NCBI GenBank assembly: GCA_001801825.1
Contig: MGYR01000135.1
Coordinates: forward strand, 1 to 36,281
Direction: 5' to 3'
DNA: 36,281 nt
Origin: Gammaproteobacteria bacterium RIFCSPLOWO2_02_FULL_56_15
Lineage (GTDB): Bacteria > Pseudomonadota > Gammaproteobacteria > Eutrophobiales > Eutrophobiaceae
The notes below the pieces were generated by a model that saw nothing but the letters and a program-made list of their open reading frames with translations, searched no databases and was not told where the DNA came from. Positions 6,178 to 33,339 of this stretch are shown piece by piece. The stretch's first letter is position 1. Each line of letters opens with the position of its first letter. Made by a program: the position numbers and the translations under genes.

Positions 6178-7023
6178 ATGAAGAATCAATGCCGTGTACT
6201 CACCGTCTTGTTCGGATGCGTGTTGTGCACTGCTACCATGGCAGGACCGCTTTCGGTTTGGGATTCCACCTGGACGCAATTCCAGGATGATACCCCGATA
6301 GAGGACTATATCGGGGGAGGGGGCTTTGTCGATCCCGGTTGGGGTGGACAGGCGTTTGATGCGGAATATCTGTTCTACAAGATTGAAGGGAATACCCTGT
6401 ATCTAGGTCTTCAAACTGGATTCAATATTGTAACGGGCACCCAAGAAGTTTCAGGGAAAAAATATTATTCCGGAGACCTCGCCTTGTCTTTTGATGGGGA
6501 TGTAAGTGGCGCCAATGGCGCCGGCTATGAATATGGAATCGATTTTGGGCTCCTCACAAGAGATTATGATGGCAATGATTATGTAGATATGGGTACGGGT
6601 ACCGGCGTAGACGGTTCAGGCTTATATACCGCTACGTTATGGAATAACGATATGGTTAATTCCTTCGAAAGTGTATCAACGCCCTTCGCACTGGATGCCG
6701 GCTCCTTTAGCCGAAACCTCTTGTCGAATAGCTTTGGCTCAGGTAACAACGGCGGCCTCAGCTACTACCGGATGGTCTCATTCGACATCAGCGGACTACC
6801 TGGGCTGACTGGGTATAACTATATTGATGTGCACTGGACCATGTCCTGTGGTAATGACAATATCAACGGCCGGTTTAAGGTGCCGGAACCTGCCGGAGTT
6901 GTTCTGATGGGACTGGGCCTGCTCGGATTAGCGGCGACTAGTCTACGGCGCAGGAGAATGTCAGAGCTTGCCCTCCGGTTGCCGTCTAACCATCCTTTTA
7001 CAATCGGATCACGGCAAAATTAA
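6178..7023 (+). CDS. PEP-CTERM sorting-domain secreted protein
   Basis: Start chosen at ATG 6178 (AGGAG upstream, signal peptide MKNQCRVLTVLFGCVLCTATMA) rather than the ORF-track start at 6097. C-terminal VPEPAGVVLMGLGLLGLAATSLRRRR is the PEP motif, TM helix and Arg cluster. A 21-aa tail follows. Confidence 0.75.
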   Translation: MKNQCRVLTVLFGCVLCTATMAGPLSVWDSTWTQFQDDTPIEDYIGGGGFVDPGWGGQAFDAEYLFYKIEGNTLYLGLQTGFNIVTGTQEVSGKKYYSGDLALSFDGDVSGANGAGYEYGIDFGLLTRDYDGNDYVDMGTGTGVDGSGLYTATLWNNDMVNSFESVSTPFALDAGSFSRNLLSNSFGSGNNGGLSYYRMVSFDISGLPGLTGYNYIDVHWTMSCGNDNINGRFKVPEPAGVVLMGLGLLGLAATSLRRRRMSELALRLPSNHPFTIGSRQN

Positions 7024-13673: not shown

Positions 13674-14690
13674 CTACGGATCCACGACCCTGGGCAGATC
13701 TTGCAACGGCCAGCGGGGATATGCGGCAAAGGCCAGGGGTTCCTGCACCCCGGATTGCAGACGCAGCCACCCTGCGTAGGCGATCATGGCGCCGTTGTCA
13801 GTGCAAAATTCCGGTCTGGGAAAATATATCCTTCCCCCCTCTTCCCCAATCATGCGGGTTAAGCCTTCCCGTAACTGACGATTCGCGCTTACACCCCCAG
13901 CCGCAATTAGCCGCTTCAGCCCCGTGGAACGCATGGCCCGTCGGCATTTAATTATCAGCGTATCCACCACTGCATCGACGAAAGCACGGGCTATATCCGC
14001 CCGAGTCTGTTCATCCGATCCCGAGGCTGTCACTGTATTCAGAACCTGAGTCTTGAGACCACTGAAACTGAAATCCAGACCCGGCCGCGCAGTCATCGGC
14101 CTGGGGAAAGTAAAAACCCCGGTTCGACCATTTTCTGCCAATACCGATAGCTGAGACCCGCCTGGATATTCAATGCCCAGTAATTTCGCTGTTTTGTCAA
14201 ATGCCTCGCCCGCAGCATCATCCAGCGTATCTCCCAGTATGTAATAGACGCTAGGGGCATCAACTTGGACCAGTTGCGTGTGGCCTCCGGACACCAGCAA
14301 GGCCAGGAAGGGGAAATCTGGGGGATGTACTTCCAGCATGGGAGCGAGCAAATGAGCCTCCATGTGGTGCACGGCAATCGCCGGTTTTCCCCATGCATAT
14401 GCCAGACTTCGACCGATCGCGGCGCCCACCAACAGGGCGCCTACGAGACCAGGCCCGGCGGTATAGGCGATTCCGTCCGCCTTGGTGATACCTGCCGCTT
14501 CCAGGACATCACGGATCAGGAGAATAGTGCGGCTGATATGGTTGCGTGACGCGAGTTCAGGCACGACACCGCCATAATCACGATGCAGACTGGCCTGACT
14601 GTGCAACAAGTGTGCGAGCAATCCCCGTTCCGGGTGGTAAACGGCCACTCCGGTCTCATCACAGGAGGTTTCTATCCCCAGTACATACAT
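13674..14690 (-). CDS. tsaD: tRNA N6-adenosine threonylcarbamoyltransferase
   Basis: 338 aa. [25 protein letters not shown] and GGVSAN motifs. It is divergent from rpsU, as in many Proteobacteria. Confidence 0.95.
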
Positions 14691-14803: not shown

Positions 14804-15019
14804 ATGCCATCAGTTAAAGTCAGAGACAATGAACCATTTGACCTGGCCCTGCGCAGGTTCAAGCGTGCCTGCGAAAAAGCCGGGACACTGGCCGAAGTCC
14901 ATCGCAGGGAAGCCTATGAAAAGCCCACGCAGATAAGAAAACGCAAAGCAGCAGCGGCTGTAAAACGTAACCAGAAGCGCGTCTCCAAGGAACTGAACCG
15001 GCATATCCGACTGTACTAA
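14804..15019 (+). CDS. rpsU: 30S ribosomal protein S21
   Basis: 71 aa starting [27 protein letters not shown], the canonical S21 sequence. Confidence 0.95.
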
Positions 15020-15049: not shown

Positions 15050-15499
15050 ATGTCCGCCTTGAAACAACGGATCAGTGATGATGTCAAGCAGGCCATGCGC
15101 GAGCGGGACAAGGAGCGGCTTTCCACACTTAGACTTCTAACTGCAGCGATCAAGCAGAAAGAAGTCGATGACCGGCTAGAGCTTGATGATGGCCATATAC
15201 TGGCTTTACTGGACAAACTTATCAGACAATATAGTGATTCCATCGAACAGTTCAAAAAGGGGAATCGATACGACCTCGTGGAGAAGGAAACTCGGGAACT
15301 GCAGATAGTACTGCACTACCTGCCAACGCAAATGACCAGAGACGAAATCGCCAGCTTGGTAGCCGATACCATTGATGAGACCAGTGCAACGAGTATCCGG
15401 GACATGGGCAAGGTCATGGGCGCGCTGAAACCAAGGGTACAGGGTCGTGCAGATATGAGTATCGTCAGCGAACTTCTCAAACAGCAATTATCCCCGTAA
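15050..15499 (+). CDS. GatB/YqeY domain-containing protein
   Basis: 149 aa starting MSALKQRISDDVKQAMRERDKERLSTLRLL..IKQKEVD, a YqeY-family pattern. Confidence 0.85.
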   Translation: MSALKQRISDDVKQAMRERDKERLSTLRLLTAAIKQKEVDDRLELDDGHILALLDKLIRQYSDSIEQFKKGNRYDLVEKETRELQIVLHYLPTQMTRDEIASLVADTIDETSATSIRDMGKVMGALKPRVQGRADMSIVSELLKQQLSP

Positions 15500-15581: not shown

Positions 15582-17369
15582 ATGAGCGGCCTGATACCAC
15601 AGCCCTTTATTGATGACCTGTTGGCCAGAACAGACATTGTGGATCTGATCCACAGTTATGTTCCCTTGAAGAAGGCTGGCCATAATTATCAGGCACTGTG
15701 CCCGTTCCACGACGAAAAAACCCCATCATTTTCAGTCAATCAAGACCGGCAGTTCTATCATTGCTTCGGTTGTGGTGCGAGCGGGAACGCCATCAGTTTC
15801 ATGATGAATTACAACCGCATAGATTTTGTTGACGTGATCGAAGAACTGGCTACCCGTGCAGGATTGACTGTCCCGCACGAAGGAACAGCGCAATCACAGA
15901 AGGTCAAGGAAGACCTGACAGAACTCTATGAACTGATGGAACTCGTAATCGATTTTTATCGCAAGCAGCTGCAGGATCACTCACAATCTGGCTGTGCGGT
16001 TGAATACCTCAAGCACCGTGGCATCACTGACGAGATTGCATCAAAGTACGAGCTCGGCTTCGCACCGGATAACTGGGATTACCTCATTCAAAACCTGGGG
16101 AAGTCCGAGGCGGCAAAGGATCGTCTGTATAAAGCGGGGATGATCATTCGGCGTGATAACGGTAACTATTATGATCGATTCCGGCAACGCATTATGTACC
16201 CGATCCGGGACCAGCGTGGTAGGGCGATCGGTTTCGGTGGCAGAATTATCGATTCCGGTAATCCCAAGTATCTCAATTCGCCGGAAACATCTATTTTTCA
16301 CAAGGGCAGAGAACTTTACGGACTGTACCAGGCCCGCCAGAGTACAAGAAATCCAGAACGGCTTTATGTTGTAGAGGGTTACATGGATGTACTCGCTTTG
16401 TCCCAGCATGGGGTTACGAATTGCGTTGCAACCCTCGGCACAGCAGCTACAAGTGAACATATTGAACGGGTATTCCGCACCACGAGTGAAGTAGTCTTTT
16501 GTTTTGATGGTGATGACGCAGGCAGCAAGGCAGCATGGCGCGCCCTGGAAATTACGCTGCCAATGTTGAGAGACGGAAGGGAGGCCTATTTCATGTTCCT
16601 ACCAGAGGGACAAGATCCGGATGATTATATTCGTACTAACGGTAGGGAGGCATTTACTGACGCGAGCCAGCATCGCCCGCTTTCCAATATACTACTGGAG
16701 TTCCTGACACGGAACTTTAACCCGGCGATAATGGAGCATAAGGTCAGCCTGGTACACAAGGCAACACCATATCTGCAGAATCTACCCCAGGGGAGTCTGA
16801 AGCAGTTACTGTTGGCACAGCTTGCAATGCTTACCGACCGGGACACCAGCCAGTTGGAATTACTCTCATCACACCGAGAAACCCATGAAATCAGGAAATC
16901 AGCTGTTACTTACTCCGCACGAGAGGAGCGGAAACTGGTATCACAAGCAGTCAAACTACTATTACAACGCCCTCAACTTGCCTTACAAGTAACAGAAAAG
17001 ATGTCGCTGGAAAAGAGCGAGACTGCAGGAATCGAATTTCTTCAGGCACTAATCTTACTCGTTAAGAAAAATCCGGATATTACCTGTGCTCGGATACTTG
17101 AAAACTGGAGAGGGACACGATATGAAAAGCGTCTCGTACAGCTCGCACCAGGTGGACAATCACGCTATGGAGCGGATGAAACCTGCTTTGAAAGCAGCGA
17201 CTTCCTGCAGTCAGAATTCCTGGGAATTATCTACAGGTTAGAGGATGGTGAGAGAAAAAAACGACTCGTGGAATTCAATACCGTATCCAGTACCGCGAAA
17301 TTGACCAAAGAGCAAAAGGAATTCCTGAAAAACCTCAACCCGACGGCCAGAAGACCCGGTCAAAAGTGA
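15582..17369 (+). CDS. dnaG: DNA primase
   Basis: 595 aa. Zinc ribbon CPFHDEKTPSFSVNQDRQFYHCFGCGASGN and TOPRIM EGYMDV...FDGDDAG. Confidence 0.95.
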   Translation: MSGLIPQPFIDDLLARTDIVDLIHSYVPLKKAGHNYQALCPFHDEKTPSFSVNQDRQFYHCFGCGASGNAISFMMNYNRIDFVDVIEELATRAGLTVPHEGTAQSQKVKEDLTELYELMELVIDFYRKQLQDHSQSGCAVEYLKHRGITDEIASKYELGFAPDNWDYLIQNLGKSEAAKDRLYKAGMIIRRDNGNYYDRFRQRIMYPIRDQRGRAIGFGGRIIDSGNPKYLNSPETSIFHKGRELYGLYQARQSTRNPERLYVVEGYMDVLALSQHGVTNCVATLGTAATSEHIERVFRTTSEVVFCFDGDDAGSKAAWRALEITLPMLRDGREAYFMFLPEGQDPDDYIRTNGREAFTDASQHRPLSNILLEFLTRNFNPAIMEHKVSLVHKATPYLQNLPQGSLKQLLLAQLAMLTDRDTSQLELLSSHRETHEIRKSAVTYSAREERKLVSQAVKLLLQRPQLALQVTEKMSLEKSETAGIEFLQALILLVKKNPDITCARILENWRGTRYEKRLVQLAPGGQSRYGADETCFESSDFLQSEFLGIIYRLEDGERKKRLVEFNTVSSTAKLTKEQKEFLKNLNPTARRPGQK

Positions 17370-17463: not shown

Positions 17464-19362
17464 TTGAAAGCGATGCCATCACTGGAACACGTAGTAGAAG
17501 ATAGCTTGGGCAATACCTCCAACGACGGTGAATCCCGGCTGAAACTCCTCATCTCCAAAGGGAAGGAACAGGGCTTCCTAACCTATCACGAGGTAAATGA
17601 TCACCTGCCTGACGATATCGTCGATCCGGAGCAGGTCGAAGACATTATCAACATGATCAATGACATGGGCATAGAGGTTCATGAAACTGCCCCTGATTTG
17701 AGCCTAGTCATGACGGAGAAGACCGAAAGCCCGGATGAAGACGCCGCTGCGGAAGCGGCAGCCGCAATTCTTAGTGTGGATAATGAATTCGGCAGGACTA
17801 CAGACCCGGTTCGTATGTATATGCGGGAAATGGGTACGGTTGACCTCCTCACCCGTGAGGGCGAGATAAAGATCGCAAAGCGAATCGAAGAGGGTCTGAA
17901 CCAGGTACTGACCGCCCTTTCCCAGTTTCCAGGCAGCATCGACACACTGTTAATAGCGCATGCCCAAGTCGAGAAAGACGAAATCAAACTGGCAGATGTG
18001 CTAACTGGTTTCACCAACCAGGACGACTACCAGCAATCTGCGGCTCAGCCGGTTACTTCGACCGTGGATCGTGCCGCACCCAGTGCCGATAACGATGATG
18101 AAGAGGAAGATGAGCTCCAGGACAGTTCAGACAGCGATCCTGCGGAAGTTTCCATCGATCCCGAGGAAGTCAGAAAGCACATCAAGCAACTTGCCGACCA
18201 ACACAAGAAACTGATTCGGGCTATTCCGAGAAACGGCCGGGGCAACAAAAAAACTCTGGCTCTGCAGGACAAGCTCACCGAGCTTTTCATGGAACTTAAG
18301 CTTGCCCCAAAATTCATCGACGAATTGACTGTCAATCTCAATACGCTGATTGACAGTATCCGCTCCACGGAAAGAAACGTGATGAAACTTTGCGTTAAGG
18401 ACGCCAAGATGCCGCGTAAGGATTTCATCAACCAGTTTCCAGGTAATGAAACTAATACCAACTGGGTCACGGGTCTGATGAAAACCAGAAAAGCCTGGGT
18501 CGGGAATCTCGGTGCAATTCAGGCGGAGGTTGTCAGAAACCAGTCCAGACTGGCTCAGATCTTCGATAACAACTTGCTTACCATACCGGAGATAAAAGAA
18601 ATCAACCGAATGGTTTCTATCGGTGAGGCAAAGGCGCGGCGGGCAAAAAAGGAAATGGTCGAGGCGAACCTTCGTCTCGTGATCTCCATCGCCAAGAAAT
18701 ACACCAATCGTGGCCTCTTGTTTCTTGACTTGATCCAGGAAGGGAATATTGGGCTGATGAAGGCGGTGGATAAATTTGAATACCGCAGGGGATACAAGTT
18801 TTCCACCTATGCTACCTGGTGGATCCGGCAGGCTATAACACGTTCCATCGCTGATCAGGCTCGAACTATCCGTATACCGGTGCACATGATCGAAACCATC
18901 AACAAGCTGAACCGTATCTCCCGCCAAATCCTTCAGGAACTCGGACGCGAACCGACCCCAGAGGAACTTGCCGTGAGGATGGAAATGCCGGAGGACAAGG
19001 TGCGAAAAGTCTTGAAAATCGCCAAGGAGCCAATCTCCATGGAGACCCCTATTGGGGATGACGACGATTCTCATTTGGGTGACTTTATCGAGGATTCCAA
19101 TACTCAGGCACCGGCGGATTCAGCCGGATTCGAAGGCCTCCGCCGGGCGACAAAAACCGCGCTTGAAGGACTTACCCAACGTGAAGCGAAGGTGCTGCGC
19201 ATGCGCTTTGGTATAGAAATGAACACCGATCACACACTGGAAGAAGTCGGGAAACAATTTGATGTCACCCGTGAGCGGATCCGCCAGATCGAGGCCAAGG
19301 CCCTGCGCAAATTGAGGCACCCAAGCCGCTCGGATGAGCTACGAACATTTCTGGATTCATAA
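17464..19362 (+). CDS. rpoD: RNA polymerase sigma factor RpoD (sigma-70)
   Basis: 632 aa with an acidic region 1 spacer, region 2 ([32 protein letters not shown]) and region 4. The ORF-track start is TTG 17464. ATG 17473 is an alternative. Confidence 0.95.
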
Positions 19363-19403: not shown

Positions 19404-19431
19404 TTGATTTCCTGATCGCTGCCCTTATAAT
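19404..19431 (+). promoter_or_regulatory. candidate sigma-70 promoter for the tRNA gene
   Basis: TTGATT, a 16-nt spacer, then TATAAT, about 80 nt upstream of tRNA position 1. Confidence 0.4.
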
Positions 19432-19509: not shown

Positions 19510-19822
19510 GGGCCTGTAGCTCAGTTGGTTAGAGCAGTGGACTCATCAGTAATGGTGCGTTCATACCGAGAGGTATGAAATGAACGGGATGAATTCAGGG
19601 AACCCTTAGCAACTCAGTTGATGGGAACCCTGAGCCAAGCCGGAGGTACACCTCCGGAAGGTGCAGAGACTACCTGGGAACTTGAGTGTTCTTAATCACA
19701 GGCTGGAGCGTCCCGCTCCCCAGCGACTCCGGTTGCGGGAGATGAGATAGTCCACTCCTGCCAGAAATGGCAGGACAGAGTGAATCCATTGGTCGTAGGT
19801 TCGAGTCCTACCGGGCCCACCA
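19510..19822 (+). tRNA. intron-interrupted elongator tRNA with CAU anticodon (probably tRNA-Ile2, lysidine type; tRNA-Met not excluded)
   Basis: Exon 1, 19510-19546: GGGCCTG TA GCTC AGTTGGTTA GAGC A GTGGA CTCAT. Exon 2, 19783-19822: AA TCCAT TGGTC GTAGG TTCGAGT CCTAC CGGGCCC A CCA. Joined, they give a 77-nt cloverleaf with a 7-bp acceptor stem (one G:U pair), a GTTCGAGT T-loop and an encoded CCA. G1-C72 excludes an initiator. C4-G69 and C5-G68 match what I recall as TilS identity pairs. Confidence 0.85.
19547..19782 (+). ncRNA. group I intron (IC3-like, ORF-less) in the tRNA anticodon loop
   Basis: 236 nt that begins after exon U and ends in G. GUG at 19555-19557 can pair with exon CAU. P2-like hairpin UUCAUACC-GAGA-GGUAUGAA at 19560-19579. 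P4 pairing UUCAGGG/CCCUGAG at 19594-19600 and 19628-19634. Hairpin CCGGAGG-UACA-CCUCCGG at 19640-19657. Core string GAGCCAAGC...GAAGGUGCAGAGACUA at 19632-19672 closely matches my recollection of the Azoarcus tRNA-Ile intron. Terminal GAAA-tetraloop hairpin at 19757-19774. Confidence 0.8.
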
Positions 19823-20467: not shown

Positions 20468-22150
20468 TTGAGAATCATCCTGACCCTAGGTCTCCTACTA
20501 TTTTTCCAGGTACAGGCAGCCAGCCCGGGAGCGATCCATGCCAGCGAGGGGATGGTGGTATCACGATCCGCTCTGGCCTCAACCGCCGGGGTGGAAATTA
20601 TGAAATCTGGCGGAAATGCCATTGATGCTGCCGTCGCCACTGGCTTTGCCCTGGCAGTCACCTACCCTTCCGCAGGAAACCTGGGGGGAGGTGGCTTTGC
20701 CGTTATCCAGTTGCAGGATGGCACTGTGGTTACACTGGACCACAGGGAAACCGCACCCGGTCACGCCAGTCGCGATATGTATCTCGACAAAGACGGCACA
20801 GTGATACAAGGATTGTCGCGACAAAGCCATGCTTCCTCCGGTGTCCCTGGAACCGTTGATGGACTGCTGACCCTGCTGGAAAAATACGGCACAAAAACCC
20901 GACGGGAGGTCATGGCAACTGCCATCCGGCTGGCGCGCGAAGGTTTTCCACTTTCGCGGGACATGACCGAGCAGTTTGCCGGCGTCCTTGGTTTTATGCA
21001 GGACCACCCGACATCTCACAAGGTCTTCAGCAATAATGGACAGGCCTACCGCGAAGGAGATCTCTGGAAGCAACCCGATCTGGCGGATACGCTGGAAATA
21101 ATTGCCGAAAAAGGACGTGATGGTTTCTATAATGGCAGGATTGCAGAACTCATCGTTGCGGAAATGCAGCGTGGCAACGGCCTGATATCCCTGCAGGACC
21201 TCACGAATTACCGATCAGTCTGGCGCGAGCCGGTGCATGGGACTTACCGAGGCTATGATATCTGGGGTATGCCGCCACCATCCTCTGGCGGTGTATTGGT
21301 CGTGGAGATGCTGAACATGCTGGAACCCCATGACCTGGCCGGTATGGGCTGGGGCAGCGCCGCTGCCGTGCACGTGCTGATAGAATCGGAGCGTCGTGCC
21401 TATGCAGATCGATCCGAATATCTTGGAGATCCTGACTACTACCCCGTCCCGGTATCGAAGTTGATCGCCAAGGATTATGCACGCCAGCGCTTTAGCGACT
21501 TTCGTGCAGATCAGGCGAGCAACAGCGCTACCATCACACCCGGCAAATGGTCGGAAGAAAGTATCGAAACCACGCACTTTTCAACCATGGATGCCGCAGG
21601 TAATGCGGTTGCCCTGACAACGACTTTAAACAGCAGCTTCGGGAACCGGATCGTGGTCACGGGTGCCGGTTTTTTGCTGAACAACGAAATGGATGATTTT
21701 TCCATCAGGGAAAACACGGCCAATCAGTATGGTCTACTGGGTCGGGAAGCGAACTCTATCGAGGCCGGCAAGCGGATGCTGAGTTCCATGTCACCCACCA
21801 TCGTCAGCAGGGAGGGGAAACCCTACCTGATAACCGGCTCCCCGGGCGGCTCAACCATCATCACCACCGTACTCCAGGTCATTGTCAACGTGATCGATCA
21901 CAAGATGGGGATCGAGGATGCCGTTGCCCTGCCCAGGTTTCACCACCAATGGCAGCCCGACGGTGTCATCTATGATCCCTTTGCCATCTCACCCGACACT
22001 CTCGCGATCCTGGGGAAAATGGGACACAAGGGATTCCGCAATTTTCCCTTCGGCGGTGGGCTCGGCGATGCCAACTCCATTCTGGTCAAAGAAGGGGAAT
22101 TGCTCGGTATGAAAGACCCACGCAACGAGGGCCTGGCAGTAGGCTACTAG
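20468..22150 (+). CDS. ggt: gamma-glutamyltransferase
   Basis: 560 aa. TTG start with GGAGG 8 nt upstream, and a signal peptide. GGNAIDAAVA, the autoprocessing-site region ETTHFS, and GSPGGSTII. Confidence 0.9.
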   Translation: MRIILTLGLLLFFQVQAASPGAIHASEGMVVSRSALASTAGVEIMKSGGNAIDAAVATGFALAVTYPSAGNLGGGGFAVIQLQDGTVVTLDHRETAPGHASRDMYLDKDGTVIQGLSRQSHASSGVPGTVDGLLTLLEKYGTKTRREVMATAIRLAREGFPLSRDMTEQFAGVLGFMQDHPTSHKVFSNNGQAYREGDLWKQPDLADTLEIIAEKGRDGFYNGRIAELIVAEMQRGNGLISLQDLTNYRSVWREPVHGTYRGYDIWGMPPPSSGGVLVVEMLNMLEPHDLAGMGWGSAAAVHVLIESERRAYADRSEYLGDPDYYPVPVSKLIAKDYARQRFSDFRADQASNSATITPGKWSEESIETTHFSTMDAAGNAVALTTTLNSSFGNRIVVTGAGFLLNNEMDDFSIRENTANQYGLLGREANSIEAGKRMLSSMSPTIVSREGKPYLITGSPGGSTIITTVLQVIVNVIDHKMGIEDAVALPRFHHQWQPDGVIYDPFAISPDTLAILGKMGHKGFRNFPFGGGLGDANSILVKEGELLGMKDPRNEGLAVGY

Positions 22151-22161: not shown

Positions 22162-22932
22162 ATGATGCAGGTCCTGCTCATCGATGCATTGAACCTGATC
22201 AGGCGCCTCTATGAGGCACTGCCCCATGGTCCGGATACCATACATCCGGACAACATGGACAATGCCGCACACACCCTTGAGCGTGTCCTGCGCCTGCATT
22301 CACCGAGTCACGCCTGCTGCGTGTTTGACAGTCGCGGCCCCACTTGGCGTCATGAGATATTCAGCGACTACAAGGCCAACCGCAAGGCCACGCCACGCCC
22401 CCTGCTGGAGGCGCTGCCCGGATTTTCCCAACGATTTCAGGACCTCGGTATCCGCTCGGTATCCGTACCCGGTTTCGAGGCGGATGACGTGATCGCCACC
22501 CTGGCCCAGGGGATCAGCCAAAGACATGGCCACGTCACCATCCTGTCGACGGACAAGGGTTATCTGCCACTGCTGGGAATACGGATCCGGGTTTATGATC
22601 ATTTCAACCAGCAGACCTATTCACCGGAATCGGTACTGACTAAATACGGTGTCCGGCACGACCAACTTATCGACTACTGGGCGCTTGCAGGCGATCCAGT
22701 CAGTAACATCAAGGGGGTCCCTAAAATCGGGGCAAAGACCACCCAAAACCTGCTGCAGGAATTCGGTACGCTGGATGCCCTGTTTGAACATCCACCCGAG
22801 GGCGCTGTCGGTCGGCGGATCCTGGAACACCGCGACGCTCTGGAGCTCTACCGCCGGCTGCTCCAGCTCCGAACCGACCTCACTGTGGGGCTCAACCTGA
22901 AGGAACTGCGATACCCCACCAAGTCAGCCTGA
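22162..22932 (+). CDS. xni: flap endonuclease Xni (5'-3' exonuclease family)
   Basis: 256 aa. LLIDALNLIRRLY, FEADDVIATLA, STDKGY and H3TH GVPKIGAKT motifs. Confidence 0.85.
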   Translation: MMQVLLIDALNLIRRLYEALPHGPDTIHPDNMDNAAHTLERVLRLHSPSHACCVFDSRGPTWRHEIFSDYKANRKATPRPLLEALPGFSQRFQDLGIRSVSVPGFEADDVIATLAQGISQRHGHVTILSTDKGYLPLLGIRIRVYDHFNQQTYSPESVLTKYGVRHDQLIDYWALAGDPVSNIKGVPKIGAKTTQNLLQEFGTLDALFEHPPEGAVGRRILEHRDALELYRRLLQLRTDLTVGLNLKELRYPTKSA

Positions 22933-22981: not shown

Positions 22982-23996
22982 ATGGCGGACTTTTCAGAAA
23001 ATACGTTCTGGCAACGGGCCATCGCCCTGGTGGACATGAATGCCTTCTTCGCCTCGATAGAGCAACGCGATAATCCGGCGCTCTACGGCAGGCCCGTGGC
23101 CGTCACCAACGGGCTTACCGGTACCTGCATCATCACCTGCTCCTACGAAGCCAGGGACTGCGGCATCCACACTGGAATGCGTATCCGGGAAGCCCTCCGG
23201 CTCTGCCCGGTTCTGCTGGTACAGCGACCGGCCAACCCGGAACGCTACGCCAGGGTATCCAGCAACATCATGGCGGCCCTGCAGGACATCAGCCCTGACA
23301 TGGAGGTCTTTTCCGTGGATGAGGCTTTCCTGGACGTCACGCGCTGCCAGCGGCTCTGGGGATATCCCGTGCAGATTCAAACAGAGGGTGTTCCAGGCCT
23401 CTGGGGTACGCTGCTCGGTGGGCATGAGCGGGGACAAAACCACCGCCAAATACGCCGCTAAGCTGCAGAAACCCGACGGGCTCACCCTGATCCCGCCTTG
23501 GCAGGCACGGGAACGACTGCGGAATGTCCCGGTTACCGGGCTAGGTGGTATTAACCAGGGAATCGGCGCTTTTCTGGCCGACCGTGGCGTCTTTACCTGT
23601 GGCGATATGGACAGGATACCTATCAGTACACTGGGGCAGCGTTTCGGCAATCCCGGCCGCCGTATCTGGTACATGTGCCGCGGCGAGGATCCGGACAAGG
23701 TCCAGGGGCATATCCATCCCCCGAAATCCGTCGGTCACGGGAAAGTGATGCCGCCGGATACCCGGGATAATGATCTGATCTTCATGCACGCACTGCACCT
23801 CAACCGGGCACTGGATCTGATCAATGAACGTTTCGGCGAATTCACCATCGCCCCGGCGAAACTATTGCACCGCTCCGATATGCCGAATGTCATCGCACCG
23901 GCCTGGAAGCCCTACGGCCACCGGCAGACCATCCCTTCCACCCGGCCGCAACGACGCCGGGATACGTCCGGAAAGGTGCATGATATGGATTGGTGA
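22982..23996 (+). pseudogene. dinB: DNA polymerase IV (Y-family, DinB-like), disrupted
   Basis: Frame of 22982 gives ALVDMNAFFASIEQRDNP...SVDEAFLDVT...WGYPVQI, then runs to a stop at 23461. The homologous continuation KQRVFQASGVRCSVGMSGDKTTAKYAAKLQKPDGLTLI... is in the frame of 23319, so a frameshift lies near 23375-23385. After GKVMPPDTRDNDLI the sequence jumps almost directly to the C-terminal LNRALDLINERFGEFTIAPAKLL...NVIAPAWKP tail. That suggests loss of most of the little-finger domain. Confidence 0.65.
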
Positions 23997-26563: not shown

Positions 26564-27232
26564 TCAGTGCTGATGGCTTTCATGATCATGATTTTCTGCA
26601 GTGTCCTCCGGCATCTGGCTTTCCGTTTCATGGTGTATGTCATCAGTTGCCGAGTGTATTTGGGAACCTTCGTCCTGATGACCGGCATCTTCCTGCAACG
26701 CCGTCGTATCCACATTATGGTCATTATCAACCGGCGTGGAGTGGTCATGTGAAGCATGGCCATGCTCACCGGATTCGTTCTGCGGAAGGGAAATAACACC
26801 TATACCATGCCGGTAAACAACCTCGGCACCTCTCCAGGCAGTGCTTCCCAACATCATGCCGGCAAGCAGAAGCGTACCAAGAAAGATGTACCCGGGCTGT
26901 GACCGACTCCTTACACGCCATAAGGAATAAACAGACAAAACAATAAACAACGCCAATGTCGCCAATGCCCAGTTCCTGTGGTCCGTCATTGCTGCATGTG
27001 AGAGGGTACTGTTGTGCACCACGCTGTTATAGGCAAACCACCCGGCGATGGCGGTAATAATTCCGAACCCTGTGCCAAGCCAGAGATCCCAACGTGCCAA
27101 TATTTCAAACTGTTGCTTGATCCTTCCTTCAGGCAAGAATGGATAAAGAATATGGAAACCAACAGTAAGACTCAATAATGCAACAGTAAAGTGCACAAAT
27201 ACCGGGTGCCAATTAGGGATGATTTCAAACAT
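26564..27232 (-). CDS. DUF2231-like 4-TM membrane protein with His/Asp/Glu-rich C-terminal tail
   Basis: 222 aa. The N-terminal NWHPVFVHFTVALLSL motif (HPxxVHF) and 4 hydrophobic helices fit DUF2231. The last roughly 70 aa are rich in H, D and E (GEHGHASHDH...HHETES...NHDHESHQH). The ATG overlaps the cusA stop (ATGTTTGA, 27225-27232). Confidence 0.65.
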   Translation of the reverse strand: MFEIIPNWHPVFVHFTVALLSLTVGFHILYPFLPEGRIKQQFEILARWDLWLGTGFGIITAIAGWFAYNSVVHNSTLSHAAMTDHRNWALATLALFIVLSVYSLWRVRSRSQPGYIFLGTLLLAGMMLGSTAWRGAEVVYRHGIGVISLPQNESGEHGHASHDHSTPVDNDHNVDTTALQEDAGHQDEGSQIHSATDDIHHETESQMPEDTAENHDHESHQH

Positions 27233-30200
27233 AGTTAATTACCTCACTTAATCCCTTCCGCCTGCGAAGGTTCCATTCCTTGACCAGTGCATAGATGGCC
27301 GGAATCACGATCAGCGTCAGTGCGGTGGATGACACCATACCGCCCACCATGGGTGCGGCGATGCGCCTCATCACCTCGGAACCGGTACCACTGCCCCACA
27401 TGATGGGCAAGAGGCCGGCCATGATGGCCACCACGGTCATCATCTTAGGACGTACCCGCTCCACCGCGCCTTCCATCACCGCCGCATAAAGGTCGGCCAC
27501 GGCAAACGGCTTGCCCTCGGCATCCCGCTGCGCCTTGAGGGCCAGGTAAGCGTGATCAAGATAGATCAGCATGACGACGCCGGTTTCTGCCGCCACCCCG
27601 GCCAGCGCGATAAAACCGACCGCCACCGCCACGCTCATGTTGTAGCCCAGCCAGTGCATGAGCCAGACCCCGCCCACCAGCGAGAACGGCACCGACAGCA
27701 TAACGATCAGCGTCTCCGTCAAGCGGCGGAAATTAAGGTAAAGCAGCAAGAAGATGATCAGCAAGGTCAGCGGCACCACGAGCTTGAGGCGCTCCTTGGC
27801 ACGCTCCATGTACTCAAACTGGCCGCTCCAGGTGATGTAGTAGCCAGGCTGGAATTTGACCTGGTCGCGCACCGCCTGCTGTGCGTCCGCCACATAGTTG
27901 CCGATGTCGCGTCCGCGGATGTCGACGAAGATATAAGCCGACAGCAGCGCGTTCTCGGTACGGATGCTGGGTGGCCCTTTTTCCAGGGAGATATGCGCCA
28001 GTTGGCCGAGCGGGATCAGCATCCCGCCCATGGTCGGCACCAGCACCTGGCGAGCAATAGTGACCGGATCGGAGCGCAGCTCGCGCGGATAGCGCGTAAT
28101 CACGCCGAAACGCTCCCGACCCTCCACCGTAGTAGTGATCAATTCTCCGCCGAGTGCGCTGCCGATGACATCCTGCAAGTCACCGACCGCCAGCCCATAG
28201 CGTGCCAACGCCTGCCGATCAGGGTCGATGACGAGATAGTAGCCACCCGTGATGCGTTCGGCATAGGCGCTGGTGGTGCCCGGCACGGCCTTGACCACGG
28301 CCTCGATTTCCTTGGCGAGTTTTTCCATCTCCCCCAAATCGCGCCCGAACACCTTGATACCGATGGGCGTGCGGATACCGGTAGAAAGCATGTCGATGCG
28401 GGCCTTGATCGGCATGGTCCAGGCATTGCTCACGCCCGGGATTTGGACCGCCTGGTCCAGCTCCGCAATCAGCTTGTCAATGGTCATCTCGGGGCGCCAC
28501 TCTGCCTCGGGTTTGAGATTGATCACTGTCTCGAACATTTCCAACGGCGCCGGGTCGGTAGCCGTATTGGCACGACCGGCCTTGCCGAATACCGAGGTGA
28601 CTTCCGGAAAATTCTTGATGATCCGGTTCTGGGTCTGCATGATCTCGGCGGCCTTGGTCACGGAAAGCCCCGGCAAAGTGACCGGCATGTAGAGCAACGT
28701 GCCTTCGTTCAGCGTCGGCATGAACTCGCTGCCAAGCCGGTTCAGCGGGTACACAGTCACTCCCAGCACCACCAACGCTGCGAAGATAGTAAATTTTTTC
28801 CAGCGCATCACCCCGGCGATGATCGGCCGGTAGAGCCAGATCAGCAGCCGGTTTAACGGGTTCTTGCGTTCGGGCATTATCTTGCCGCGAATAAACAGTA
28901 GCATCAGCACTGGCACCAGTGTCACCGACAGAAACGCCGCACCCCCCATGGAAAAAGTCTTGGTGTAGGCCAGCGGCTGGAACAAACGGCCCTCCTGTGC
29001 TTCCAGCGTGAATACCGGCAGGAAGGAAACAGTGATGATCAACAAGCTAAAGAACAGCGCCGGCCCGACCTCGCGGCAGGCGTCGATCATCAACTGGACG
29101 CGCGGCGCGCCCGGTGGCGCCCGCTCGATATGCTTGTGCGCGTTTTCGATCATGACTATGGCGGCATCTACCATGGCGCCGATGGCAATGGCGATACCGC
29201 CCAGGCTCATGATGTTGGAATTGAGGCCCAGCCAACGCATCAGGATGAACGCGATCAACACACCCACCGGCAGCATCAGGATAGCCACCAGCGCACTGCG
29301 CACGTGCAGCAGGAACAGCACGCACACCAGCGCAACAACAACACTTTCCTCGATCAGCGTTGTTTTGAGATTTTCGATGGCGCGGTGGATCAGATCAGAG
29401 CGGTCGTACACCGTTTCCACCGTAACGCCATCCGGCAGGCCGGAGGCGATTTCGGCAAGCTTTTGCTTGATGTTGTGGATGACATCGAGCGCGTTCTGTC
29501 CGTAGCGCGCCATGGCGATGCCGGCCACCACTTCGCCTTCGCCATTAAGCTCAGTCAGCCCGCGCCGCTCGTCCGGCGCCAGCTCTACCCGCGCCACGTC
29601 GCGCAGCAATACTGGTGTGCCCTCGTCGGCCTTGACCACCAGGCTTTCCAGATCGCCAATACCACGCAGGTAACCCTTGCCCCGTACCATATATTCGGTC
29701 TCGGTCATTTCCACCACGCGCCCGCCAACATCGCGATTACTGTCGCGGATCACCTGCGTAATGCGGGCCGGCGAAACACCGTAGGCTTGCAGCTTGAGCG
29801 GGTCAAGCACCACCTGGTACTGCTTGACAAAACCTCCCACGCTGGCCACTTCGGCCACGCCGTGCGCCTTGCTCAATTGGTAGCGCAGATACCAGTCCTG
29901 GATTGCCCGCAGTTCTTCCAGCGTGCGATTTTTGGCCAGCACCACGTATTGATAGACCCAGCCGACACCGGTGGCATCAGGACCCAGGGTCGGCGTGATA
30001 CCACGCGGGAGGGTCCCACTGACGGAATTAAGGTATTCCAGGACGCGCGAGCGCGCCCAGTAGATATCGGTACCGTCTTCGAAAATGATGTAGACAAAGC
30101 TCGCACCGAAGAACGAAAAGCCGCGCACTACCTTGGACTTCGGCACCGACAGCATGGCCGAGGTGAGCGGGTAGGTGACCTGATCCTCCACCACCTGCGG

Positions 30201-30371
30201 CGCTTGCCCGGAGTACTCGGTATAGATGATGACTTGCACGTCTGACAGATCGGGTATGGCATCCACCGGCATCTTGTACACGGCATAGACGCCCGCACCA
30301 ACCACGAACAGGGTAGCCAGCAACACCAGAAACACATTGCGTACCGACCATTCAATGATGCGCTCCAGCAT
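27225..30371 (-). CDS. cusA: Cu(I)/Ag(I) efflux RND transporter permease
   Basis: 1048 aa. SLGGIAIAIGAMVDAAIVMIENAHK is nearly identical to the E. coli CusA TM4 region as I recall it. 12-TM RND architecture. Confidence 0.9.
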   Translation of the reverse strand: MLERIIEWSVRNVFLVLLATLFVVGAGVYAVYKMPVDAIPDLSDVQVIIYTEYSGQAPQVVEDQVTYPLTSAMLSVPKSKVVRGFSFFGASFVYIIFEDGTDIYWARSRVLEYLNSVSGTLPRGITPTLGPDATGVGWVYQYVVLAKNRTLEELRAIQDWYLRYQLSKAHGVAEVASVGGFVKQYQVVLDPLKLQAYGVSPARITQVIRDSNRDVGGRVVEMTETEYMVRGKGYLRGIGDLESLVVKADEGTPVLLRDVARVELAPDERRGLTELNGEGEVVAGIAMARYGQNALDVIHNIKQKLAEIASGLPDGVTVETVYDRSDLIHRAIENLKTTLIEESVVVALVCVLFLLHVRSALVAILMLPVGVLIAFILMRWLGLNSNIMSLGGIAIAIGAMVDAAIVMIENAHKHIERAPPGAPRVQLMIDACREVGPALFFSLLIITVSFLPVFTLEAQEGRLFQPLAYTKTFSMGGAAFLSVTLVPVLMLLFIRGKIMPERKNPLNRLLIWLYRPIIAGVMRWKKFTIFAALVVLGVTVYPLNRLGSEFMPTLNEGTLLYMPVTLPGLSVTKAAEIMQTQNRIIKNFPEVTSVFGKAGRANTATDPAPLEMFETVINLKPEAEWRPEMTIDKLIAELDQAVQIPGVSNAWTMPIKARIDMLSTGIRTPIGIKVFGRDLGEMEKLAKEIEAVVKAVPGTTSAYAERITGGYYLVIDPDRQALARYGLAVGDLQDVIGSALGGELITTTVEGRERFGVITRYPRELRSDPVTIARQVLVPTMGGMLIPLGQLAHISLEKGPPSIRTENALLSAYIFVDIRGRDIGNYVADAQQAVRDQVKFQPGYYITWSGQFEYMERAKERLKLVVPLTLLIIFLLLYLNFRRLTETLIVMLSVPFSLVGGVWLMHWLGYNMSVAVAVGFIALAGVAAETGVVMLIYLDHAYLALKAQRDAEGKPFAVADLYAAVMEGAVERVRPKMMTVVAIMAGLLPIMWGSGTGSEVMRRIAAPMVGGMVSSTALTLIVIPAIYALVKEWNLRRRKGLSEVINYV

Positions 30372-30372
30372 G

Positions 30373-31854
30373 TCAGTGCCCCTCGTGGCCCGTATCCGTT
30401 ACCGGAGCAGCCATGTCGGGCACGGCGGGGTTGCCTGCGGCCTGATCTTCATGCTGGCCGAAACTGCTGAACGCCGCCGTAAGATTACTCTCTGCGTCGA
30501 TCAGGAAATTCGCCCGCACTACCACGTTCTCGCCCTCGCCCACTCCTTGCAGCACCTCGACATAACCATCGCTCCGCACTCCGATTTTTACCGCGCGCGG
30601 TTCGAACAGACCTGCGTCGAGTTGCACCAGCACTACCTGGCGCGTGCCGCTGTCGATCACGGCCGAATCCGGCACCGTCAGTACTGGGCTTTTGCCCCCT
30701 CCTGCCTCCAGTTGCAGGCTGGCATACATATCGGGCTTGAGCATGCCGCCAGGATTATCCAATTCCACCCTGACCGGCACGGTGCGGGTCACAGGCGAGA
30801 GCGTGGGATATATATAAGCGACCTCGCCGCTGAATTCCTTTCCGGGATAGGCATCGACACTGATTTTAACTTTGTCACCAATACTTACATAGCCAAGATC
30901 CTGCTCAAACACATCTGCGATTAGCCACAGCCGCGCAAGATCAGCGATCAGGTAAAGCGGATCTCCTGGCATAAAATGCATCCCCAGCACGGCAGTTTTT
31001 TCCAGCACCACACCGTTGGCGGGCGAATACAGGGTGATGGTGCTGGTTGCCTTACCCTCGCTCTGCAGTCCTTTCAGTTCACTATCAGAAATATCCCAGT
31101 TGCGCAGGCGCTGCAGCGCGCCTTCCGCCAGATGCTCCATCCCTGTCTGCGATTCCTCAGTACCGCTGTTCAGGGCTTGCTTGCCTTGCCAGGCGATCAG
31201 GTATTCCTCTTTTGCCGAAATCAGTTCCGGACTGTAGATCTGCATCAATGGCTGACCGCGTTGCACCGGCTGGTTGGTCGCGTTCACATAAAGATCCTCG
31301 ATGTGACCCTCGAACTTGGTGGTCACCGTATGCAGGAGTCGCTCATCCACCTGGAACTTGCCTACGGCGCGCACCGTCCTGGTCATTTTGCGCAACGTCG
31401 CAACCTCGGTCCTCACGCCCAGCTTCTGCACCTTGTCCAGGCTTATTTTCACCTGGCCGGACTGCGTCGACTCACCCTCGTAGACCGGGATGTAATCCAT
31501 ACCCATGCTGTCCTTTTTCGGCTCCGGTGATGTATCTGGTAAACCCATCGGATTGCGGTAGTACAACACCCTGCGCTGCGTGTTGCCCGAGGCAGGAGCG
31601 GTCGCACCCGGCAATTCGTCTGCATAGACCGGGATGTAGTCCATGCCCATGCTGTCCTTTTTCGGCTCGGTCGAGGTGTCGGAAAGGCCCATCGGGTTGC
31701 GGTAATAGAGGATTTTTCTCTCAGCAGGCACGAATGTATCTGCCGACTTTTCAGCCAAGGGCTGGCCTGCCTGCTTCATTCCCCACCAGTAGCCTCCTCC
31801 CGTCGCAACAACACCGAACAATGCCAGTGCAATCCAGATTCCTGGTCGATTCAT
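30373..31854 (-). CDS. cusB: Cu(I)/Ag(I) efflux RND periplasmic adaptor
   Basis: 493 aa with an N-terminal anchor and two copies of the YYRNPM...SMGMDYIPVY motif (compare E. coli CusB YWYDPM...FMDMDLVPKY). It also has the barrel-sandwich and beta-barrel core. It lies adjacent to cusA and overlaps the cusC stop by 4 nt. Confidence 0.85.
   Translation of the reverse strand: MNRPGIWIALALFGVVATGGGYWWGMKQAGQPLAEKSADTFVPAERKILYYRNPMGLSDTSTEPKKDSMGMDYIPVYADELPGATAPASGNTQRRVLYYRNPMGLPDTSPEPKKDSMGMDYIPVYEGESTQSGQVKISLDKVQKLGVRTEVATLRKMTRTVRAVGKFQVDERLLHTVTTKFEGHIEDLYVNATNQPVQRGQPLMQIYSPELISAKEEYLIAWQGKQALNSGTEESQTGMEHLAEGALQRLRNWDISDSELKGLQSEGKATSTITLYSPANGVVLEKTAVLGMHFMPGDPLYLIADLARLWLIADVFEQDLGYVSIGDKVKISVDAYPGKEFSGEVAYIYPTLSPVTRTVPVRVELDNPGGMLKPDMYASLQLEAGGGKSPVLTVPDSAVIDSGTRQVVLVQLDAGLFEPRAVKIGVRSDGYVEVLQGVGEGENVVVRANFLIDAESNLTAAFSSFGQHEDQAAGNPAVPDMAAPVTDTGHEGH
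31480..31713 (-). repeat. tandem in-frame duplication (144-nt / 48-aa period) inside cusB
   Basis: Residues 48-77 are ILYYRNPMGLSDTSTEPKKDSMGMDYIPVY and residues 96-125 are VLYYRNPMGLPDTSPEPKKDSMGMDYIPVY. The DNA copies 31624-31713 and 31480-31569 are about 42/45 identical over their first 45 nt. Confidence 0.85.
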
Positions 31855-33140
31855 AACTCTTCTCCAATCAGTTTTTCAATCTCTGCCAAGTGCATTTCCT
31901 GCTCTGCCTGCGCCCTGATCTGATCCTGTTTGGCATGCCAGATGGCACGCTGCGCTTCGAGCAGTGTAGTGAAATCCACCTTGCCGTTTTCATATCCCGC
32001 CAGAGCCGAGTGCAAGGTTAGATTGGCCTGTGTCAACAGGGTATTGGTGAGCAGATGTTCCTGATCCCTGGCCGCTTCGTAGGCTGCAATAAATTCCTGC
32101 AGTTCACCCATCACATTATTGACTATAGACTGCTGGCGCTCTCTGGCGGCAGCCAGCATGGCGCCTGCCTCCGCTTCCTGGGCGCTGCGGGAATCGAACC
32201 GGATCGGAATGTTGACCTCTACCATCGCTTCCCAACCGTCGATGCTGCTGCCGCGCTGGGTTGTCGCAATCCCAAAAGTCACGTCGGGATAGCGGTTTTT
32301 CTCTACCAGATTCCGGTTGGCCTCGGCCATTGTGATTTGCACATCCTGGGTTCGTAGCAACGGATTATTGCGCTGCGCCTTTTCCCGCAACAAATCCGCA
32401 TCGAATATTTCCGGAGACAGACGGCGCAGTATTTGAGGATCTGCCAGCGGTGCGTGCTGTGGCCGCCCGGTCATCGCATTCAGCCGTGCCCGGGCCTTCT
32501 TCTGCTCGGCTTCCAGCGTAATGATTTCAGAACGCAACAATGTTTTCTCGACCTGTGCCCGGATCACATCCTGTTGCGGCACCAGCCCGTTGGAATAACG
32601 CACCTGGGCGATGGTCTCAATTTCCTGCAACAGTGCCAGAATTTCTTCGTTGAGCTTTTGCAAGCTGTATGGTTGATAGAGCTGTGCATAGGCAATTTTT
32701 ATCTGGGAATGAATTTCGGCAAGCAAGGCCGCTCTACGAGACTTTGTCTCATCCAATCCCGCTGTCGCAATTACGGTGCGCAGATCACGTTTGCCCCAGA
32801 GCGGAAAATTCTGCATCAATGTGTACTTGGTTCCACCCACCTCGCTGGGCAGCACATTGAACCCGTTCGGTGCAGCCGGTCCGGCAAAATCCATCAACTC
32901 GATGCGCAGCATCGGATCAGGTAATGCACCTGCAGGCACGATACGGCTCTGTGCGGCCTCGATTTCAAAACGCATGACACTAAGTTCGGGATTATGCGCA
33001 TCGGCCCATTGCAGCAGTTCCCCCACTTCGATGCCGATAGGTGTTAAATCAGAGAATTCATCCGCTTTCACCGACCCTGATTGCTTTGCAAACACTAGTA
33101 GCAGATAGACTAGGATTAAAGTTTGTTTATTCGTTTTCAT
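31851..33140 (-). CDS. cusC: TolC-family outer membrane efflux protein
   Basis: 429 aa with a signal peptide without a lipobox, and two-repeat coiled-coil/OEP architecture. It is the first gene of the cusCBA-type operon. Confidence 0.8.
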   Translation of the reverse strand: MKTNKQTLILVYLLLVFAKQSGSVKADEFSDLTPIGIEVGELLQWADAHNPELSVMRFEIEAAQSRIVPAGALPDPMLRIELMDFAGPAAPNGFNVLPSEVGGTKYTLMQNFPLWGKRDLRTVIATAGLDETKSRRAALLAEIHSQIKIAYAQLYQPYSLQKLNEEILALLQEIETIAQVRYSNGLVPQQDVIRAQVEKTLLRSEIITLEAEQKKARARLNAMTGRPQHAPLADPQILRRLSPEIFDADLLREKAQRNNPLLRTQDVQITMAEANRNLVEKNRYPDVTFGIATTQRGSSIDGWEAMVEVNIPIRFDSRSAQEAEAGAMLAAARERQQSIVNNVMGELQEFIAAYEAARDQEHLLTNTLLTQANLTLHSALAGYENGKVDFTTLLEAQRAIWHAKQDQIRAQAEQEMHLAEIEKLIGEEL

Positions 33141-33198
33141 GATTTCACCTGATTATGTCGGCACATCCAGATGCTATGGATGCAGGAACATATTGACT

Positions 33199-33291: not shown

Positions 33292-33339
33292 ATTGCCTGG
33301 TCCAAAGATAATTTATCGGGATTGCTGAAGTCTGGACTC

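Follow-up and report, generated by a model that had tools for sequence, protein, structure and literature searches.

The stretch of DNA that we analyzed (the window) is 36,281 nucleotides (nt) long and comes from contig MGYR01000135.1 of Gammaproteobacteria bacterium RIFCSPLOWO2_02_FULL_56_15. In it, tsaD, rpsU, a yqeY-like open reading frame (ORF), dnaG, and rpoD are followed by a tRNA gene that is cut in two by 236 nt. We are confident that this gene is an orthologue of ileX, that the insert after tRNA position 36 is a compact, self-splicing group I intron without an ORF (position 37 is the first base of the 3' exon), and that the tRNA reads AUA codons after lysidine modification.

The 5' exon (19510-19546, forward strand) reads GGGCCUGUAGCUCAGUUGGUUAGAGCAGUGGACUCAU and ends with ...GGACUCAU. 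The 3' exon (19783-19822, forward strand) reads AAUCCAUUGGUCGUAGGUUCGAGUCCUACCGGGCCCACCA (i.e., AAUCCAU...CCA), and the intron between them (19547-19782, forward strand) begins with C and ends with G. ARAGORN's default search of the raw 36-kb window reports no tRNAs; with its intron option, it recovers a split tRNA (19510-19822) whose intron is 236 nt long; and from the joined exons, it predicts a canonical 77-nt tRNA(CAU) cloverleaf. The insertion point falls after the fifth nucleotide of the anticodon loop (CUCAU/c...g/AA). There is only one possible junction: since a C follows CUCAU and a G precedes AAUCC, just one cut yields CUCAUAAUCC, which is the exact loop sequence in the uninterrupted orthologues. 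When used with the intron option, ARAGORN labels the gene as tRNA-Gln(CUG), with the junction 2 nt upstream. With that cut, the base preceding the splice site would be C instead of U, and the intact orthologues read CUCAUAAUCC; we therefore rejected it. The U before the 5' splice site and the terminal G of the intron (omega-G) are found in all of the 23 split tRNA(CAU) genes that we examined.

The neighborhood helps to identify the host gene. In Escherichia coli K-12, the order is tsaD (reverse strand), rpsU, dnaG, rpoD, mug (reverse strand), and ileX, which is annotated as tRNA-Ile(CAU). Because tsaD (reverse strand), rpsU, the yqeY-like ORF, dnaG, and rpoD run parallel to this order, we place the split gene at the position of ileX. 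We also used the window's RpoD as a query to fetch 80 gammaproteobacterial rpoD loci from species-representative genomes (the best RpoD identity was 70%). An intact tRNA(CAU) lies within 3 kb of rpoD in 41 of these loci, usually no more than 150 nt downstream, and the split form is present in 3 (L124, L134, and L173); one more, L165, has an intron core at a contig end. In L123, the closest relative that we found, the tRNA(CAU) after rpoD is intact, scores 75.5 bits on the Rfam tRNA model, and is identical to our joined exons at 75 of 77 positions (97%). The 5' exon is identical over all 37 nt, and the two differences, both in the 3' exon, make up a single compensated pair in the T stem. Finally, Silva et al. 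(2006) reported that G3-C70, C4-G69, and C5-G68 mark tRNA-Ile(CAU) and that A11-U24 and G12-C23 mark the initiator, fMet, although these determinants are not universal (PMC1635315). The joined tRNA has all three of the former pairs and lacks both of the initiator's D-stem pairs. Given the synteny with ileX, the acceptor marks, the missing fMet marks, and the identity to ileX and to the intact orthologue, we conclude that the host gene encodes tRNA-Ile2, is an orthologue of ileX, and specifies a predicted TilS substrate of the CAU type rather than a Met or fMet tRNA. The lysidine modification itself is expected by analogy.

An earlier, sequence-only reading of this DNA had proposed that the tRNA-Ile2(CAU) gene after rpoD carries a group I intron in its anticodon loop, and this proposal is supported by a covariance-model match, by covariation among 19 homologues, by the identity of the exons, and by the synteny with ileX. 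That reading was also right that the exons join into a complete cloverleaf with an encoded CCA (ARAGORN's result for the joined exons agrees, and the coordinates given in that reading were exact), that U precedes the 5' splice site and G ends the intron, and that the host context (tsaD and rpsU-yqeY-dnaG-rpoD) is gammaproteobacterial.

Fold and covariation of the intron

Rfam's group I model (RF00028, Intron_gpI) matches 19535-19774 on the forward strand at 66.0 bits, compared to a gathering score of 50 (E = 9.3e-15), and the match covers model positions 1-253 of 253. Such a match is well outside what chance would produce, and no other Rfam family is above its threshold in the 36-kb window. 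The relatives described below score 56.7-77.6 bits with the same model. No ORF of more than 29 amino acids lies wholly inside the intron.

For a comparative analysis, we aligned the window with 15 gammaproteobacterial and 3 betaproteobacterial relatives using MAFFT (alignment A1, 19 sequences). We wrote the structure from the window's sequence and counted its pairs explicitly on the alignment, with column shuffles and with partners slid by 1-3 columns as controls. Across the 76 proposed pairs, 93.9% of cells form a standard pair, versus 79.9% in the column shuffles and 36-42% with slid partners. Changes on both sides are seen for 42 of the 76 pairs (the shuffle mean was 26.2), the covariation score is 0.384 versus 0.131 in the control, and none of 500 shuffles reached any of the observed measures. 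The core helices (P3 through P8, with the P3/P7 pseudoknot) have comparative support; P7 itself is invariant, which is consistent with the pairing but uninformative. P2, P5a, P6a, the inner part of P7.1, P8, P9.0, and P9 vary repeatedly within the Gammaproteobacteria. Furthermore, when the intron is folded by itself, the minimum free energy (MFE) structure contains P2, P3, P4, P5, P6a, P7.1, P8, and P9, with z = -4.69. In at least 18 other species, the exons and the ribozyme core are conserved and changes in the stems are compensated.

The individual elements are listed in Table 1, and a few of them need comment. The wobble pair U19546.G19555, which marks the 5' splice site, lies inside P1 and is present in 19 of 19 sequences, and the internal guide sequence is GGUG at 19554-19557. 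Rfam's alignment has instead a P1 of 9 bp that reaches into the anticodon stem. Its outer pairs are not conserved in relatives (e.g., L097) and overlap P2, so we kept 4 bp. J4/5 is AA. P7, the guanosine-binding helix, matches the P7 annotation of a published alignment of tRNA introns. In P7.1, all four outer pairs change on both sides, always between the gamma- and betaproteobacterial sequences, and two inner pairs vary within the Gammaproteobacteria. Both pairs of P9.0 are compensatory (the first is AU in 10 sequences, GU in 5, and GC in 4; the second is CG in 16, GC in 2, and AU in 1). We also considered whether P5 contains the canonical 11-nt receptor for GAAA tetraloops. The window has a near match (CCUUAG/GAUGG), the relatives differ, and we make no claim for it. 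As a separate observation, C19603 and G19625 extend P5 of the window by one pair where most relatives have an unpaired A and C, a double change at the boundary of P5 and J4/5 that is specific to the window's lineage.

Most of what the sequence-only reading said about the fold also stands: the group I model gave the significant match that it asked for, the intron has no ORF, there are GNRA-capped hairpins (GAGA on P2 and GAAA on P9), and P4 is present. Its string GAGCCAAGC-hairpin-GAAGGU corresponds to P6/P6a at 19634-19662. It had described P1 as 3 bp (CAU/GUG); the pairing is correct, but the helix is 4 bp long (19544-19547 with 19554-19557).

Several points weigh against the view that this is a working intron. 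P1 and P7 are invariant and so carry no covariation signal, and P1 is just 4 bp. Many of the double changes, including all four in outer P7.1 and both in P3, separate the 16 gammaproteobacterial sequences from the 3 betaproteobacterial ones. They thus stand for a small number of evolutionary events, and relatedness among the sequences is not corrected for in the shuffles. The Rfam score is moderately above the threshold. A P10 pairing with the 3' exon is not evident, and we found no terminator-like site downstream of the split tRNA. Taken together with the comparative evidence above, we still read the intron as real and very probably a functional self-splicing element, as judged from its sequence and those of its relatives.

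Table 1. Coordinates of the split tRNA gene, the elements of its intron, and neighboring genes in the window
Feature	Position	Strand	Description and support
tsaD	13674-14690	-	
rpsU	14804-15019	+	
yqeY-like ORF	15050-15499	+	
dnaG	15582-17369	+	
rpoD	17464-19362	+	
Promoter-like site	19404-19431	+	Sigma-70 type: TTGATT, 16 nt, TATAAT; 10 of 12 consensus matches; pattern match only, putative function
Split tRNA	19510-19822	+	
5' exon of tRNA-Ile2(CAU)	19510-19546	+	Acceptor 5' strand, D arm, anticodon stem 5' strand, loop C32 U33 C34 A35 U36; U-1 is the last base; ARAGORN on joined exons
P1	19544-19547 with 19554-19557	+	C19544-G19557, A19545-U19556, U19546.G19555, C19547-G19554; all invariant (19/19)
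Group I intron	19547-19782	+	Rfam RF00028; covariation in 19 homologues; MFE z -4.69
P2	19560-19579	+	8 bp, GNRA loop GAGA at 19568-19571; 8 of 8 pairs change on both sides; in MFE fold
P3, 5' strand	19585-19591	+	CGGGAUG, with 19709-19715; 7 pairs, 100% paired, 2 compensatory; also in Rfam alignment
P4-P5-P5a	19595-19633	+	P4 19595-19600/19628-19633, P5 19604-19605/19623-19624, P5a 19610-19613/19617-19620; pair counts, Rfam alignment
P6/P6a	19634-19662	+	GCC...GGU, inner hairpin 19640-19657; P6a 5 of 6 pairs compensatory, 100% paired
P7, 5' strand	19666-19672	+	GAGACUA with bulged A19667; pairs with 19748-19753, pseudoknot across P3; 6 pairs invariant (19/19)
P7.1	19673-19702	+	Between P7 and P3'; outer 19673-19676/19699-19702, inner 19677-19681/19688-19692
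P3, 3' strand	19709-19715	+	CGUCCCG
P8	19716-19741	+	5 bp, CA bulge, 5 bp, UCCG cap; 7 of 10 pairs compensatory; in MFE fold
J8/7 and P7, 3' strand	19742-19753	+	AUGAGA and UAGUCC; invariant or nearly so in alignment
P9.0	19754-19755 with 19780-19781	+	A19754-U19781, C19755-G19780; encloses P9
P9	19756-19775	+	8 bp, GAAA tetraloop at 19764-19767; 7 of 8 pairs compensatory
Omega-G	19782	+	Terminal guanosine, 3' splice site after it; directly follows covarying P9.0
3' exon of tRNA-Ile2	19783-19822	+	A37 A38, anticodon stem 3' strand, variable loop, T arm, acceptor 3' strand, encoded CCA
ggt	20468-22150	+	
xni	22162-22932	+	

Two other features of the window deserve mention. First, dinB (DNA polymerase IV, 22982-23996, forward strand) seems to be split by a single frameshift: the ORF at 22982-23461 corresponds to profile positions 5-126, and an overlapping ORF in another frame (23319-23996) corresponds to positions 125-266. 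This is either a pseudogene or an error in sequencing or assembly. Second, a metal-efflux cluster on the reverse strand (27225-35922) encodes an RND (resistance-nodulation-division) pump of the CusA/CzcA type, a CusB-like adaptor, an outer-membrane factor, and a P-type ATPase of the CopA type. The cluster is ordinary chromosomal content and is unrelated to the split tRNA.

Relatives and the history of the insertion site

Split tRNA genes of this kind have been known since 1992 and are common in public genomes. We scanned one genome per species with the core pattern GAGCCAAG-N8-38-GAAGGTGYAGAGACTA, and at least 120 species matched. The matches cover many phyla, and most of those listed lie inside split tRNA genes according to ARAGORN. 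Among the 120 matches listed, tRNA-Leu(UAA) is the most frequent host (39), followed by CAU-type tRNAs, Asn, Arg(CCU), Phe, and others. At least 23 tRNA(CAU) genes from these 120 species are cut exactly alike (CUCAU/...G/AAUC), and at least 15 of them are gammaproteobacterial, from Woeseiaceae, Steroidobacteraceae, Lysobacter, Luteimonas, Rhodanobacteraceae, Azotimanducaceae, the K189A clade, Pseudomonadales, and unclassified metagenome-assembled genomes (MAGs). The gammaproteobacterial split genes align over nearly the full pre-tRNA of the window at 70-83% identity. Two cultured bacteria, Lysobacter daejeonensis GH1-9 and Luteimonas aestuarii B9, have this split gene.

The sequence-only reading took bacterial tRNA introns to be rare and limited to a few hosts, such as some alpha- and betaproteobacteria, so that a gammaproteobacterial host would be new. 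This premise fails because of the counts from our scan, because Williams (2020) mapped 5292 tRNA genes that are split by group I introns in about 80,000 bacterial genomes (bioRxiv 10.1101/2020.01.27.920355), and because split tRNA-Arg(UCU) and tRNA-Leu(UAA) genes of this type were reported in the Gammaproteobacteria Beggiatoa and Thiomargarita (PMC4853749). Four classical types (Leu.3Ug, Arg.5Ug, fMet.2Ug, and Ile2.5Ug), all catalogued there as subgroup IC3, together account for 3453 of the introns in the survey by Williams (bioRxiv 10.1101/2020.01.27.920355). The split gene in the window adds to a known class, and knowledge of the class is unchanged.

What is mildly new is the subclass. In Azoarcus, in introns of tRNA-Leu and tRNA-Arg, and in the betaproteobacterial Ile2 introns L003, L089, L106, and L116, the 5' strand of P7 (GAGACUA) is followed directly by GACGG of P3'. 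Introns of the Azoarcus type are also about 205 nt long and have AAGGCA or AAGGGA as J8/7. The window instead has a 30-nt P7.1, AGCGUCCCG as P3', and AUGAGA as J8/7, and in the window and its relatives, P7.1 occurs together with different P3 strands, with AAU as J3/4, and with A(U/A)GAGA as J8/7. The same combination of P7.1, P3, J3/4, and J8/7 is found in the Lys.2Ug, Asn.4Ug, Phe.2Ug, and Leu.1Ug seeds of Williams. When we compared the introns outside the core pattern, the tRNA-Asn introns L056, L075, and L005 were among the most similar to the window's of those that are not from tRNA-Ile2, and L118 also belongs to this group. By its sequence features, then, the intron belongs to a P7.1-bearing subclass of small bacterial tRNA introns and not to the Azoarcus subclass, despite the common site. 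One site in one rpoD-linked gene thus holds introns of two structurally distinct subclasses.

How did this come about? Our tentative suggestion is that the site at positions 36/37 may have been colonized at least twice, once by the Azoarcus type and once by a separate P7.1 lineage, akin to the introns of tRNA-Asn, Phe, and Lys, which has been kept at the rpoD-linked ileX across several gammaproteobacterial orders and which may lie in the only tRNA-Ile2 gene of these bacteria. The other explanation, which we consider somewhat less likely, is vertical descent from a single invasion, that of the Azoarcus tRNA-Ile intron, followed by gain of P7.1, in which case there was no separate lineage and no second colonization. 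Both types interrupt the same gene at the same point, their P4-P6-P7 cores are nearly identical, rpoD adjoins the split gene in loci of the Azoarcus type from Betaproteobacteria (L003, L106, and L116) as well as in gammaproteobacterial loci, and the P7.1 type also occurs in three Betaproteobacteria (L030, L038, and L042), all of which would fit with a single invasion. On the other hand, P7.1 comes together with other P3 strands, another J3/4, and another J8/7 (AUGAGA or AAGAGA versus AAGGGA or AAGGCA), and P7.1-bearing introns in tRNA-Asn, Phe, and Lys have this same set of features. Also, outside the core, the window scores 57-69 against these introns of other tRNAs, the Azoarcus-type Ile2 introns all fall below the top 60, which end at a score of 41, and overall identity to the Azoarcus intron is just 53%.

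We noticed several other things about the relatives. In 11 other relatives, as in the window, the split tRNA-Ile2 gene is downstream of rpoD and co-directional with it. In L033, L095, and L099 (MAGs of Pseudomonadales), whose introns have a large insertion in the loop of P1, it adjoins rpoD convergently. An orphan 5' exon of tRNA-Ile2 (...GGACUCAUAA, continuing into unrelated sequence) precedes the split gene by about 230 nt in L003 (Polynucleobacter, around 6430-6480, reverse strand) and in L038 (Burkholderiales, around 2240-2285, reverse strand). A 3' half that matches the orphan exon is not present in either, and these exons may be remnants of recombination or of integration at the tRNA. 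Two MAGs labelled as Pacearchaeota (L011 and L040, both in split tRNA-Asn(GUU) genes) and one labelled as Methanosarcinaceae (L062) carry the core pattern of bacterial tRNA introns; for a case in Pacearchaeota, Williams (2020) suspected mis-binned bacterial scaffolds (bioRxiv 10.1101/2020.01.27.920355). Finally, the P6-P7 core pattern matches at least 120 viral contigs in IMG/VR (L203-L322). Among the 120 listed, 92 are outside of the split tRNAs that ARAGORN recognizes and probably interrupt other genes. None of these 120 is a close relative of the window's pre-tRNA or intron, so they give no lead on a phage vector.

Proposed splicing, AUA decoding, and annotation

The intron is built like a standard group I ribozyme, and we therefore adopt the usual two-step pathway for it. 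The pre-tRNA would be transcribed from the candidate promoter, which falls between the stop codon of rpoD (19362) and the 5' end of the tRNA, or by read-through from rpoD. The intron would fold into P1-P9 with the P3/P7 pseudoknot, and a free guanosine bound in P7 would attack the phosphodiester bond after U19546, which is in the wobble pair with G19555. Omega-G19782, positioned by P9.0, would then replace the guanosine in P7, and the 3' hydroxyl of U19546 would attack after G19782, which would join the exons and restore the loop CUCAUAA. Lysidine formation at C34 by TilS and N6-threonylcarbamoyladenosine (t6A) formation at A37 by the TsaD pathway would take place only after splicing; the two modified bases flank the insertion point and presumably need the spliced loop. 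We found no tilS within the window. We infer catalysis, the order of processing, and use of the promoter from the homologous systems of Azoarcus, Anabaena, and Tetrahymena; for example, the Azoarcus pre-tRNA-Ile self-splices in vitro, at 37 C (PMC13168695).

Could the intron be a decayed relic that no longer splices, so that the tRNA gene is a pseudogene and AUA is read by another copy of tRNA-Ile2 elsewhere in the genome? In favor of this, E. coli genomes have a median of 2 matching places, and the distribution is patchy (41 intact genes versus 3-4 split ones at the 80 gammaproteobacterial rpoD loci). But the core is intact, including the U.G pair, P7 with its bulged A, J8/7, J4/5, and omega-G, and compensatory changes keep the stems in 19 species, which neutral decay would not preserve. 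Furthermore, the exons are 97% identical to the intact orthologue, and the sole difference is a compensated pair. We consider a dead relic very improbable. It is scarcely credible that the host is elongator tRNA-Met(CAU), even though ARAGORN names every CAU anticodon as Met and tRNA-Ile2 and tRNA-Met are alike, with determinants that are not universal (PMC1635315): the gene is at the syntenic position of E. coli ileX and is 81% identical to it, it has G3-C70 (besides C4-G69 and C5-G68) where Met and fMet tRNAs usually have C3-G70 (PMC1635315), and its top E. coli matches listed are annotated as tRNA-Ile (81.8% identity), except in two strains whose best match (83.1%) is tRNA-Lys.

If the tRNA-Ile2 is spliced as we propose, then splicing would have to precede the formation of lysidine and t6A in the anticodon loop, and if this is the only copy of tRNA-Ile2, then an essential step in decoding AUA would depend on a ribozyme. 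There is also a practical consequence. The gene is overlooked by default tRNA finders, so the AUA decoder will seem to be missing from genomes of Woeseiaceae, Steroidobacteraceae, Lysobacterales, and several lineages of Pseudomonadales. For example, ARAGORN with default settings misses the split genes of the window (19510-19822), L004, L024, L025, L057, L070, L080, and others. With its intron option, it misnames split genes as tRNA-Gln(CUG), Arg(CCG), or Ser(CGA), because the junction is shifted or because a ghost 3' exon inside P9 is picked (as in L094). Finally, our alignment of 19 natural variants, in which P7.1 is conserved on an Azoarcus-like core, is a ready comparative set for studies of the folding and engineering of small group I ribozymes.

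Comparison with known systems

E. coli ileX shares the tsaD/rpsU-dnaG-rpoD neighborhood and is 81% identical to the window's joined exons. It differs in that it has no intron and that mug lies between rpoD and ileX.

Among the classes of Williams (2020), the window meets the definition of Ile2.5Ug, i.e., a tRNA-Ile2 that is cut after the fifth nucleotide of the loop, with U-1 and omega-G. This class is defined by site and not by structure, though, and the sole seed for the site (Aol6) is of the Azoarcus type and lacks P7.1. The IC3 intron of tRNA-Leu(UAA) in cyanobacteria and plastids likewise belongs to the small bacterial tRNA introns and shares the P4-P6-P7 core pattern. It is in another host and at another site (after U34-A35; Leu.3Ug), and it has GACGG directly after GAGACUA, without P7.1. 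As for the subgroup, the P4-P6-P7 core of the window matches sequences that are catalogued as IC3, and there is no P5abc or P2.1. Having a P7.1 helix in the interval from P7 to P3', on the other hand, is a trait more typical of subgroup IA introns.

The structural model system among these is the pre-tRNA-Ile(CAU) of Azoarcus sp. BH72 (A. olearius), for which we used the 205-nt Aol6 from Williams' seed alignment. Both introns interrupt a tRNA-Ile2 at CAU/AA, with U-1, omega-G, and no ORF, and both have a P2 with a GNRA cap and a P9 with a GAAA cap. The core from P6 through J6/7 to P7 is almost identical (GAGCCAAGC...GAAGGUG(U/C)AGAGACUA): the window has GAGCCAAGC-hairpin-GAAGGUGCAGAGACUA, the published Azoarcus sequence has GAGCCAAGC-hairpin-GAAGGUGUAGAGACUA, and they are one base apart. 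The sequence-only reading had described the core as nearly the same as that of Azoarcus, which is correct for the core but does not extend to the intron as a whole. Identity is 53% over the longer sequence and 66% over the aligned columns, and the window's intron is 236 nt long instead of 205. The extra 30 nt or so, which that reading had placed at 19673-19756, are mainly the P7.1 hairpin (19673-19702), within its range; Azoarcus has no P7.1. Also, P3 is GGUGUC/GACGGCACC in Azoarcus versus CGGGAUG/CGUCCCG in the window, J3/4 is AAA versus AAU, J8/7 is AAGGCA versus AUGAGA, and P5 has the canonical receptor CCUAAG/UAUGG versus the near match CCUUAG/GAUGG.

The seeds Dba165.Lys.2Ug, Pam37.Asn.4Ug, Mba55.Phe.2Ug, and Mga42.Leu.1Ug (from gpI.sto) are more like the window in these respects. 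They have a hairpin directly after GAGACUA, AGCG(C/U)CC as P3', AUGAGAUAGUCC as J8/7-P7', and AAUUCAGG as J3/4-P4. They differ from it in their host tRNAs, in their positions in the anticodon loop, and in the inner part and the loop of P7.1.

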